Below, piece after piece: positions 22,798-26,800 of a stretch of DNA of 64,000 nt. Under the pieces are notes generated by a model, which was given only the letters and a program-made list of their open reading frames with translations, was not told the origin of the DNA and searched no databases. The DNA comes from Haplodiscus bocki (lineage: Eukaryota), in NCBI GenBank assembly GCA_965655095.1, contig OZ296652.1, positions 116,002,001 through 116,066,000 on the forward strand. Reading direction: 5' to 3'. The position numbers were made by a program, and so were the translations under genes. Numbering within the stretch: the first letter of the stretch is position 1; every line of letters starts with the position of its first letter.

Positions 22798-23857
22798 ATG
22801 TATGAATTTGACGGGTCTACATTGAAATCTGATATTTGAATTATGGGCCTTATATATTCGCTACAAGGAACAAATTAACTTGAAAGTGTCTGCAAAAGCT
22901 CACAGAGATTCCGTGAAATCACTGCGCGAGATAGTTACCTTCGAATATATTCTGATATTTTAGAGACTACTGATGAAACTGGACGTGCTGAGGGTGATAA
23001 TATGAGATTGTTGAGTTTAGGACTTGTTGTTTCAAATTGTGAGGATAAGATAACTACCAGTAGTGATAAAAAGTTCCAAATAACGGATCATATCCAACGA
23101 GCAGCTTTAATATAAAAACTTTTGAGTACATGCAAGCCAGCGGATGTTTCCGTACAGGATATTGATTCTTCTCTTACCCGAAGAGATCATGAACTTATTG
23201 AAGTTAGAACAAATGAGGGAAGTTTTTTGTTAGACTAGTGTTGAGGGACTTTAAGAATTTCCTGAACATCAAGAATGGGCAATCAATATGTTAGAATTGA
23301 ATATAACTGCAAAATAACTGATTTTGCTCAGGTAAAAATCTCTGCTTATACTGTTGCTCCACAAAACTGCCTTAAATGATAAAAATAGGACTGTTCCGAA
23401 TGAGTTGCTGAATGTCCCGACAAAAGTTGTAGTTGGTTTCCAGTGAGGAGATGATTTGTATGATCGAAATCAAAGTATTGATATTTTTGACAGAGTTCCT
23501 GTGGAGATTGCAAAATGTACCAGAAGATCCAATAAATTTCTTGGCAGTCGACACTGATTAAACTACAGATGACTTTGATCATACTAATGAAGATCTTGTT
23601 CCCTTCTCAAGATACATTTCAAAAGATGACAACCTTGAAATACACATCTCGACATGATGTTATCAATAGATTTCTTTATCCATGCGACGTCACAAAAGGC
23701 CTGTTTCAGCGGTCAAAAAAAGTGGAATTCAAAATCAGAACACGTAAAGAAGATGTTGCAACGGATAACTTTGTTGCTTATATTTTCATTTCATTGAAAA
23801 TTTTATTGTCTTTTAGCTGCGACGGACAACTACACTTTCACTCTAACTGCTTGTAGC
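22798..23857 (+). pseudogene. Major capsid protein 1 (double jelly-roll type), near full-length, decayed
   Basis: YEFDGSTLKSDI, GDNMRLLSLGLVV..ITTSSDKKFQ, NVPTKVVVGFQ, DIFDRVPV and C-terminal SCDGQLHF parallel NSTIKRDF, IRLTNNAFAYCFKEASLGVTSG and ISDGNKL of 59262..60525. Confidence 0.75.
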
Positions 23858-26800
23858 ACCAGTGTACTTTTTCGACGTTTGAAAAATTTCTTTATCTTCC
23901 AGATAGTTTACAGCAAAATTTTCACCTACAACTTTCATGAAACCCAATTCCTTGGATATAGTTTTCTTAGACTTTTATATTAACACTTTCTCCAGTAAAA
24001 CAGTTGCTACATTCTCAATGATTGGTTCGACTTCTGGTTGCTTTGCTAACTGGTCTCATTATTTTTCAAGTTACAGGGCAAAAATATTATGAATATGCCG
24101 TTGTTCTGATTCGAAAAAAACCAGCTATTCAAAAAAACGGTAAATGGATGCCTCTATGTTGAGTTTTCCTATTACTTTTTCAGCTATGGTGAAAATATTC
24201 GACTCAGACATTTTGGAAAAATTGGTCCCCAGCCAGTAAAAAAACCACTATCAATGTCTATCACATAACAAAAGTTTATTCTAAAGCCAAAAAATCAGTT
24301 TTTGTGTTTTTCCAAAAACCTTCATGACGAAAACATTTTACAAGCAATTAAATAGTTTTTTTGAAATAAAAAATTAAGTTTGGTGTCTTCAGATTGGCGG
24401 AAGAAAAACTTCTTTCAATATAAAGTACGTCTAATCCCCCTATACTTTTTTAAACTTTCGTTAGGTGCGAATACAAATTTTGACTGCTACATTCATCAAG
24501 GAAGTTCCAAACATGAAAAGAAAATGTATGATACAAAACTTTGTGCTTGAAATACTGACAAAATTTTGAGTTCAATTTTAATAATTATGAGTGAAAAAAC
24601 AGTCCGAAATAAGAGAGGGCGTAGATATTTTTCACTTTCCATTGATAATTTGAGTAATGTTTATTCGGAAAACCATCAAAAAACGAAAGCAGCCAAATGA
24701 CGAACGTCTACTTCGATATTATTCTCATATCCTCAAACATTAAACTAAGTCTATTTGAGACAAATGCTGCAGAAGAACTTACGTAGTAACTTTTTGCAGA
24801 TTTGCTGCAGAGAACGGGTGACGTATGATAAAATAGACAAAAATCTAAAAGAAATGTCTTCGCAGAAAAAGTTACCTAACTGTTTGTAATTTATTGAAGG
24901 GGCCAGTTTTTATAAACGGGAGTTCAAGTTGGGTTGCTGAAATATCATCACTAGAAAAAAAACAAGCGGGTTATCCTTTTTTCAACAAAATTGACACCAA
25001 TCAAGGCTTCAATAGTGCTGTTTGAATATTAACAAATTTAGAAAAAAACGTTATGAACAATTTTAAACGAAGAAGACGAAAAATGGAAGTTGTAGACTTT
25101 CTAAGAACAATCACAAAAAGTAATGATTTTTCTGATGGAAATACTGACCTGTAGGCTGGAAAAAAAGTAACGATGTTTTCCATAGAAATCCTGTTGGGAT
25201 TACACAATGTAATCGAGGGTCCGATTTGCTGGCAGTGGACACTGTTTAATGTACAATTGAATTCGATCAATCGTATGAAGATTTTCTTCCTTTACTTTGG
25301 TGCTATGCGAAAGTTGTCTTCTTTTTGCACACAAATCCGAACAAGAGGTTAGAAATAGGTTTTTTCAGTGAGTTTCAAGTTGAGTTCACATGAAGTTCAC
25401 TGCTACTGACATTCAATTTGTTTATGTTGCCAATTTATTGAACTTTTTTCTGTCTATTACTTCTGATGGACAATTACAACTAGTTTCACTCGAACTGCTT
25501 GTTACCCCATGTACACGTTCAAAATTTGTATTGTTTTTTATCTTCCAAAGAGTTTACAGCAAGGTTTCGTGTTTTTTTTCACAAAAGACCAATCAAGAAT
25601 ATCATTTCTAGGAACATAGTTGTCTTGAACATCAATGTATTCAATTTCTCCTTAAAAACAGACAGTTGTTACAATCTCAACGCTTGGTTCGACTTGTGGT
25701 TGCTTCAGTAACTGCTCGTATCATTTTCTTCTTAGTTGAAGGACAAATCTTCTTTGAATAGGCCGTTGATCCCATTGAAAGTATTTCTGGTGTCAAAACA
25801 AAATCGGTAATCGTTTGTCAAAGAACGTCTAAATTTGATGAAAATGTATCATGCAAAAAAAACAGGGTTAAAAATTCTGATGACAATACTTTGAGTTCGA
25901 ATTTTATAAGTACGATTGAAAACAAAGTACGAAATAAAAGAGGGCGTAGATAAGTTTCAGTTTTGATTGATAAGTTTAGTAACGCTGTTTTGGAACACCA
26001 TTAAAAAACAAAAGCAGTCGAAAGAACAAAGTCTCCATCAAATTCATTCTCATCGCCTTAATCATAAAACCGCGTCTATTTGAGACAGATGCTGAAGAAG
26101 AATTTACGTGGTATTTTCTGGAGATTTCTTAAGGAGTACAAGTAATGGAAGTAGACATAGTACACTTATAGCAGACATAAACCAAAGGAACAAATTCCGG
26201 AGAAAAAACTAACAGAACTATTCGTAGATTAATTGAGGAGCCAGTATTAAAAATTGGGAGTGCATGTTGGGTTGATGAACTCTCATCACTACAAAAAACT
26301 TAATACAAAAAATTTATCTTTTTTTCAACAAAATTGTCTCCAATCAAGTCTCCAATAAAATTGCTCGTATGCCAACAAACTATGAGAAAAAATTTCATGA
26401 AAAACATTGAAAAGACAAGACGGAAATTGGAAGTTGGAGACTTCCTAAGAACAATCACAGTAAGTAGAGCTTTCTCTGATGGATATATCGACGCGTAGGG
26501 TGGTAGTCAAAGTAATGATGTTTTCGATTGAATTCCTGTTGGCATTACACCATGTACTACTGGACCCAATTCCCTGGCATGGGACACGGATTATAATACA
26601 AATGATTTTGATCAAGCATATGGAGGTTTTGTTCCTTTATTCAGATGCTATACAAAAGATTACTGCCCTTTACATACATATCGTACCATGCTGTCAAAAA
26701 ATATTTCCATTATCAGTAAGTTATCAGAAAAAAGTTTTATTTACGCTCAAATGACTTTAGACTGCAACGCTTTTGTGCATTTTAGAACACAAGACAGTTT

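Follow-up and report, generated by a model that had tools for sequence, protein, structure and literature searches.

Satellite arrays derived from transposable elements (TEs), including arrays built from internal segments of an element, are well established (PMC12628747, PMC9659126, PMC5932611, PMC7004042). In satellites made of TE parts, a sub-segment of an element is repeated in tandem and amplified, unequal exchange has been proposed as the driving process, and elements insert into the arrays (PMC12628747, PMC9659126). The internal junctions of TE tandems in Drosophila have been read, from short reads, mostly as deletions across head-to-tail double insertions (PMC5932611). The array described here lies in a 64,000-nucleotide stretch of the Haplodiscus bocki genome (the window; positions 116,002,001–116,066,000 of contig OZ296652.1, C5, in an assembly of 1.5 Gb and 6626 contigs), and it resembles the satellites made of TE parts in each of these respects. 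Unlike the arrays reviewed, its unit consists of three coding fragments of a virus-like element, a Polinton (Maverick), and the donor persists, unduplicated, at the left end of the array.

Polintons encode a double-jelly-roll (DJR) major capsid protein (MCP), an rve integrase, a protein-primed family B DNA polymerase and a packaging ATPase; further hallmarks are a cysteine protease, a minor capsid protein, terminal inverted repeats and a target-site duplication. The genome is rich in such elements, with 5731 first-look candidates for a capsid query and 9800 for an integrase query. For comparison, 12 Polintons were sampled (ten elsewhere in the genome and two in or beside the window), and 23 protein families were built from them. 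Genome searches scored the best candidates only. Extended coordinates carry the window numbering on into the neighbouring stretches.

The array occupies about 54 kb, contains about 30 units in the assembly and runs about 31 kb beyond the window. It was probably born in situ at this single locus by one local tandem duplication, with rapid early growth and then unequal exchange, deletions and block duplications. The preliminary description of the window had already proposed such a birth from a single founding junction, the monomers then diverging and being amplified later in higher-order form, and the remnants, junctions, tree and block identities reported below support it. The parts of the array that bear on its origin are as follows.

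23452–48056, plus strand: left arm of the array, with 15 junctions (segment map).
Extended 66431–94930, plus strand: right arm of the array, with 15 junctions (flanking stretches).
23452–24289, plus strand: frozen edge piece of the first unit, with the 3' third of the MCP gene to about 23845 and the 3' end of the polymerase gene (minus strand) at about 23859–24400 (homology, identity and tree).
24290–25144, plus strand: second half of the first unit, with the remaining polymerase-side segment and an integrase remnant (from about 24476; integrase residues 5–228); also the start of the first higher-order repeat.
25145–25150, plus strand: first copy of the founding integrase-to-MCP junction, mapping to edge position 23452.

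In total, 30 integrase-to-MCP junctions, 15 in the window and 15 beyond it, align in one register. The change-point fit placed 26 of them at edge position 23452, three (one repeat family) at 23458 and one at 23455, so that the single shared breakpoint suspected earlier was recovered, with the four deviating junctions within 6 bases of it. The junction joins the integrase at about residue 228 of 283 to the MCP at about residue 276 of 416. A stop site in the integrase is common to 25 of the 27 copies, and the two exceptions are of the 25170 type, a basal integrase branch. Four odd joints (extended 69992, 90518, 91361 and 94520), which lie between standard units and look like later deletions, were left out of the 30, as was a fold-back at 66430. 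The edge itself carries no junction: MCP residues 259–313 align across 23452 in one frame with 38% identity. Sequencing contigs bridge this position in all four of the four runs, which come from one study, perhaps the source of the assembly, and are thus not independent of it. A comparison, for microhomology, of the sequence upstream of the junction with the edge yielded scattered matches and no continuous run. Since the array grows out of a capsid gene and nearly all of the units share one junction, it is likely that a single local duplication founded it.

The unit, which is about 1.7 kb long and repeats from 23452, is composed of the 3' third of the MCP gene, the 3' end of a polymerase gene on the minus strand and the 5' 80% of an integrase gene. 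Its first part corresponds to MCP residues 285–413 (hhalign E-values, 5.6e-4 and 2.6e-6) and its last part to the integrase up to residue 228 of 283 (profile-profile E-value, 5.6e-21). The integrase profile has 40 plus-strand matches on the array versus none in reversed DNA, and an intact relative matches PF00665. On the minus strand, the middle segment is similar to the C-terminal end of the polymerase (hhalign E-value, 2.7e-4 over 88 columns), the best unrelated pairing in 120 hhalign comparisons having an E-value of 0.024. A profile of 127 sequences gave an E-value of 3.1e-4 for this match, against 0.046 or more for the plus, reversed and complemented controls. In an hmmsearch of the array with the polymerase, the top 24 rows, some of them overlap duplicates, were all on the minus strand and all in the middle segment (best row, 15.7 bits versus 4.6 in control DNA). 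The pooled frame-tolerant polymerase score was 59.0 versus at most 41.8 in 23 controls, and the pooled match stops at the last position of the polymerase, about 15 bases from the MCP end. The reference polymerase family was labelled by PF03175 on three of the 120 listed homologues and by visual inspection of its motifs; its pieces had no match in direct Pfam scans, and scans of PDB and PHROGs gave no name for the polymerase or for family 0 of the sampled elements. Based on these similarities, the founder is predicted, with moderate confidence, to have had a protein-primed family B DNA polymerase.

The founding block had been described earlier as MCP1-MCP2-integrase. The middle segment proved to have a best E-value of only 0.34 to the MCP profile, and the reverse polymerase is preferred. 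Assignment of the segment to family 0 was also rejected (best E-value in six frames, 0.036, to a single protein). Stop codons counted per frame did not reveal its coding frame, and a genome search with single copies of the segment returned array copies only, three non-array rows having E-values of 0.36 or worse. In 11 of the 12 sampled elements the MCP gene is followed by a reverse-strand integrase gene and in none is the order that of the founder, which indicates that the founder was rearranged or belonged to an extinct lineage; an inversion plus a deletion would suffice for the rearrangement. Because the edge and all sufficiently long units share this structure, most of the polymerase gene must have been lost before amplification.

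To the left of the array, remnants of the donor were identified by running the profiles of the 23 families over 4101–23460, with reversed DNA as a control.

18488–19308, plus strand: remnant of Polinton gene family 0; three collinear profile matches (18.7, 19.4 and 7.2 bits; control maximum, 1.0).
19347–19481, plus strand: remnant of unnamed Polinton gene family 11 (14.0 bits; control maximum, 6.9).
19893–20078, plus strand: remnant of unnamed Polinton gene family 2 (10.9 bits; control maximum, 4.9).
20834–21289 (profile 20948–21286), plus strand: packaging ATPase remnant (tblastn E-value, 2e-4; profile 20.9 bits; control maximum, 0.5).
22300–22745 (limits approximate), no strand assigned: dispersed high-copy repeat just 5' of the MCP remnant, with 16 genome matches to its last 47 bases.
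22780–23451 (profile 22918–23232), plus strand: single-copy 5' part of the DJR MCP gene, with an internal deletion (homology to intact MCPs).

Five of the 23 families match clearly, all on the plus strand and in the order 0, 11, 2, ATPase, MCP (best scores, 10.9–56.6 bits versus reversed-DNA maxima of 0.5–6.9), and families 6 and 18, whose matches were weak (9 bits or less), were left out of the count. The order agrees with that of intact elements: 0-11-2 are consecutive in eight of the 12 sampled, and in a further three a family 11 call is all that is missing. Family 0 is a putative minor capsid gene; the nearest Atlas clusters of an intact member are unnamed and mostly viral. An ATPase of the same family at 62476–63198 matches Pox_A32. 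The MCP remnant is about 35% identical to residues 48–152 of an intact 416-residue MCP, and homology picks up again at residue 259 (E-value to the intact 416-residue proteins, 5e-12). The intact MCP matches PF21738 (E-value, 3.9e-11), and the remnant itself has no Pfam match. The start assigned to the remnant earlier, 22798, does carry an ATG that corresponds to about residue 7 of intact MCPs, but homology begins a few codons before it.

A genome search with 22700–23450 gave 17 matches, namely the region itself and 16 confined to its first 47 bases, the end of the dispersed repeat. The summed contig depth of sequencing run X1 likewise reaches thousands over 22300–22745 versus about 28 over the MCP remnant. 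The claim that the remnant stands in unrepeated DNA was thus confirmed, and so was the claim that only the 3' part of the gene is reiterated, no copy in the window matching before about 23450. The same kind of search with 18300–21400 found the region itself and 14 short matches (54–159 bases) at one spot. The five ordered, same-strand, single-copy remnants therefore show that the array borders on a single decayed Polinton of which at least 5 kb is preserved, more than the preliminary description had noted. Family 7, taken as the protease by eye, has no match upstream of the array. Comparison of 14900–18500 with the flanking stretches gave no match for terminal inverted repeats, and the ends of the founder have probably decayed or been lost. 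Genome searches detected no DNA-level relative of the left-hand founder genes and no closer source family, the best intact MCPs and integrases being 28–36% and 32–37% identical, respectively, each among 150 scored candidates.

The edge piece (23478–24285, 821 columns) is at most 67.3% identical to any of the 30 other units. Its median identity to non-sister copies is 64.6%, compared with 62.9–63.6% for the 26515 family; the first copy had been called more divergent than the rest, but the 26515 family is equally divergent. The edge piece has no sister copy. In a tree rooted on five intact elements, from which near-identical block copies were omitted, the 15 other representatives form a clade (support 91/95) that includes neither the edge nor the 26515 type. 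The deep internal branches are short (0.02–0.05) versus the tips (0.15–0.28), related units cluster by position in the array, and the intact elements placed on the units share about 46–53% DNA identity with them. The first unit is not old throughout: at about 24290 it switches ancestry, and its integrase half (24290–25150) is young, being 97% identical to the higher-order-repeat copies and falling in the central clade (99/97). Such a switch is expected if later duplications started at 24290, leaving only the piece to their left frozen; lying left of all later breakpoints, the edge piece stayed so. The edge-private indels (12 runs) had no dependable polarity.

Two further features record the later history of the array.

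24290–30505, plus strand: copy 1 of a 6.2-kb four-unit higher-order repeat, with further copies at 34084–40310 and 40311–46528.
27688–28060, plus strand: first example of a doubled MCP segment of about 180 bp, which marks the central clade.

The three 6.2-kb blocks are pairwise 98.1, 97.0 and 97.3% identical over matched columns, and six units of the right arm are 95–98% identical. At 14 of the 30 junctions, all within 27714–75404, the MCP piece of about 180 bp is present twice (in one case three times). A single copy is present at both ends of the array: at the edge, at the first two junctions with their repeat copies, and at every junction from 77253 onwards. If the doubled piece was meant by the earlier "MCP2", it is limited to those 14 junctions and does not occur at the edge. 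The central clade (92/97) comprises the units with the doubled piece, apart from the unit at 75774, and a tree of the MCP segments, with just 160 bp each, could not establish that the doubling happened only once. The unit has long matches at this locus only (32 of 37 and 32 of 34 genome matches, counts that are lower bounds); those away from it are 47–160 bases long and in the integrase part. The reading frames of the units are broken. With head-to-tail copies of a sub-segment, a shared novel junction and local homogenisation, the array has the character of a TE-derived satellite, although at one locus of about 54 kb it lacks the abundance and length of a classical satellite.

We infer the following order of events, along with the repair pathway and the neutrality of the process. 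A Polinton would have inserted and lost most of its polymerase gene, the order after the MCP gene having been rearranged or being that of an extinct lineage. The segment 23452–25144 would then have been duplicated via a joint without long homology, and several deep lineages may have arisen quickly. One unit would have doubled the 180-bp MCP piece and become the founder of the central clade, deletions and block duplications would have produced the 6.2-kb repeat and the right-arm run, and younger Polintons would have inserted last, one of them splitting the array. No function is needed to explain the array.

Several observations weigh against in situ birth by a single local duplication. The native right edge, where the integrase would run past the junction point, was not found by DNA profile up to extended 204,000 (110 kb) or by protein profile up to extended 164,000 (70 kb). 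The birthplace had been described as preserved, which applies to its left side, with the founder genes at 18488–23450, but not to its right side, where no native integrase continuation was found. The joint at extended 69992 is formally a different integrase-to-MCP breakpoint, and the 30 junctions are not independent, because many of them are block copies. The edge piece (23452–24289) had been put forward as the outgroup of the units; it is basal and not nested in a young clade, but as the very first branch it is supported at only 46/20, in a tree whose outgroup is distant and placed by scored path, so that two long branches may attract. The polymerase match of a single copy is weak (mean, 20.1 versus a null of 15.4 ± 2.1), and the match is uncertain beyond the last 115 or so codons. 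Because the MCP gene lies tail-to-tail with the polymerase gene in none of the 12 sampled elements, an extra rearrangement must be assumed. A genome pattern search for this arrangement gave no matches either, a weak result in that its halves matched just eight and two, respectively, of the ten sampled stretches.

The shared junction alone would also be left by a rolling-circle burst, in which the 1.7-kb piece closed into a circle at the junction, was amplified, and in a single event returned to its source as a run of many copies, instead of a plain tandem duplication. Such a burst would fit the shared junction and the nearly star-shaped base of the tree equally well, and Polintons encode a strand-displacing polymerase. 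Some of the deep branches are nevertheless resolved (91/95 for the 15-copy clade), the earliest branches sit in the first three units, as stepwise growth from the left predicts, and the 180-bp doubling and the block repeats require unequal exchange or slippage in any case; a rolling-circle origin is therefore considered unlikely, though conceivable. A different account is needed if the array was formed elsewhere from a sister element and recombined into a homologous decayed Polinton, with the edge as the landing site. The missing right edge, the identity of just 64–67% between the edge piece and the other units and the mosaic first unit, with its integrase half in the central clade, would agree with such an import. 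It is hard to reconcile, however, with the absence of the unit from every other locus in the genome searches, with the unusual MCP/polymerase arrangement common to the edge and all units, with a distance between the edge and the other units that does not exceed that of the internal 26515 family, and with the failure to find a DNA-level relative of the left-hand genes, and we regard import as very improbable.

Selection might keep the array, for example as an anti-Polinton small-RNA source (sense capsid and integrase, antisense polymerase) or as a heterochromatin or centromere-like block. The array has endured for about 0.25 substitutions per site, with recent re-amplification in both arms, in a genome with thousands of Polinton capsid and integrase candidates. 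Against this, a DNA identity of 46–53% to intact elements is too low for small-RNA pairing with the families of today. The array is also small and confined to a single locus, some 3 Mb away from the end of the contig, and its frames are broken, while higher-order repeats are expected from neutral unequal exchange (PMC5932611), which makes selection very improbable. It is very unlikely, too, that a satellite seeded by capsid, polymerase and integrase fragments, with a history legible at one locus from the founding junction through a marked clade to young higher-order repeats, is repeatedly re-amplified by the host to serve as a chromatin domain or as a source of small RNAs against Polintons, which abound in this genome. 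In situ birth by local duplication thus remains the favoured explanation.

The array stops at extended 94930, before the integrase, and the next element begins about 170 bases further. Between its two arms lies the following element.

48057–64000, continuing to extended 65884, minus strand: young, different Polinton splitting the array, with open reading frames matching rve, DJR-like and Pox_A32 domains and terminal repeats 98.0% identical.

This Polinton is flanked by an inverted 546-base copy of the array (98.3% identity, like that of its own terminal repeats; 47511–48697 and extended 65269–66430) and not by a short direct target duplication, and the forward array resumes directly after the inverted flank. 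The flank suggests copy-back into it from paired terminal repeats, although it may instead be an assembly artefact. The genes of the element (ATPase, family 0, MCP, protease-like, ..., integrase, ..., polymerase) are on a single strand in an order unlike that of the 11 other sampled elements, and its terminal repeat contains a short palindrome (48056–48370, 79%). Further right are a Polinton-like element at extended 95104–106622, with terminal repeats of about 900 bp that contain 30-bp tandem units, and a second decayed Polinton on the minus strand (extended 108331–114122; families 7, 0, 11, 2, ATPase and MCP). The latter was compared with the left half of the founder, of which it is not an inverted copy. 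At the left of the window, 421–4452 together with stretch L025 form the right end of an element that belongs to the dominant Polinton family and carries the other type of polymerase (PF03175); its terminal repeat matches stretch L026 at 97%. A short tandem array is present at 14213–14943 (period, 127 bases; 5.5 copies; 74% matches). The region is a Polinton graveyard. In ten sampled elements, an otherwise constant capsid-integrase module is followed by a polymerase of either of two types and in either orientation, which suggests that the Polintons of this genome swap modules.

The words Polinton and Maverick are absent from the main text of PMC12628747, PMC9659126 (Table 1 in part) and PMC5932611, passages of PMC9248874 contain nothing on Polinton tandems, and no Polinton-derived array with its donor attached was found in the literature searched, which was covered mostly at the level of listings and abstracts. 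The locus would place Polintons among the elements from which tandem arrays are known to arise, while demonstrating no new mechanism and no function. Among the closest parallels are the tandems of R1, Bari1 and other TEs in Drosophila, which likewise show internal-to-internal junctions and in which deletions and insertions become higher-order repeats, as here (McGurk and Barbash 2018, PMC5932611). Unlike in those tandems, the native upstream genes are present in the assembly of this locus, and the integrase is joined back to the capsid gene within one element. In Lathyrus sativus, retrotransposon satellites similarly expand inside the element, and the array edge keeps element sequence; those arrays start from short arrays in dispersed long terminal repeat elements, whereas the repeat described here is new to its family and found at one locus (PMC7004042).

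Compared with the 12 sampled Polintons of the same genome, the founder shares the left-hand order 0-11-2-ATPase-MCP, the rve integrase and the polymerase type of the neighbour at 48057. It differs in its protein identity of only about 35%, in the reverse polymerase end and forward integrase after the MCP gene, and in that no ends were found. The origins of satellites are usually inferred after the donor has gone; at this locus, the left half of the donor, the exact joint, a clade marker and three age layers survive, and stepwise unequal exchange versus a one-step burst, frozen edges and layered growth can be tested in one place. In its layering the array resembles those of alpha-satellite, with old edge monomers, a derived clade and young internal higher-order repeats, and it differs from them in its size of about 54 kb, its 1.7-kb unit, the lack of any sign of centromere function and its known origin.

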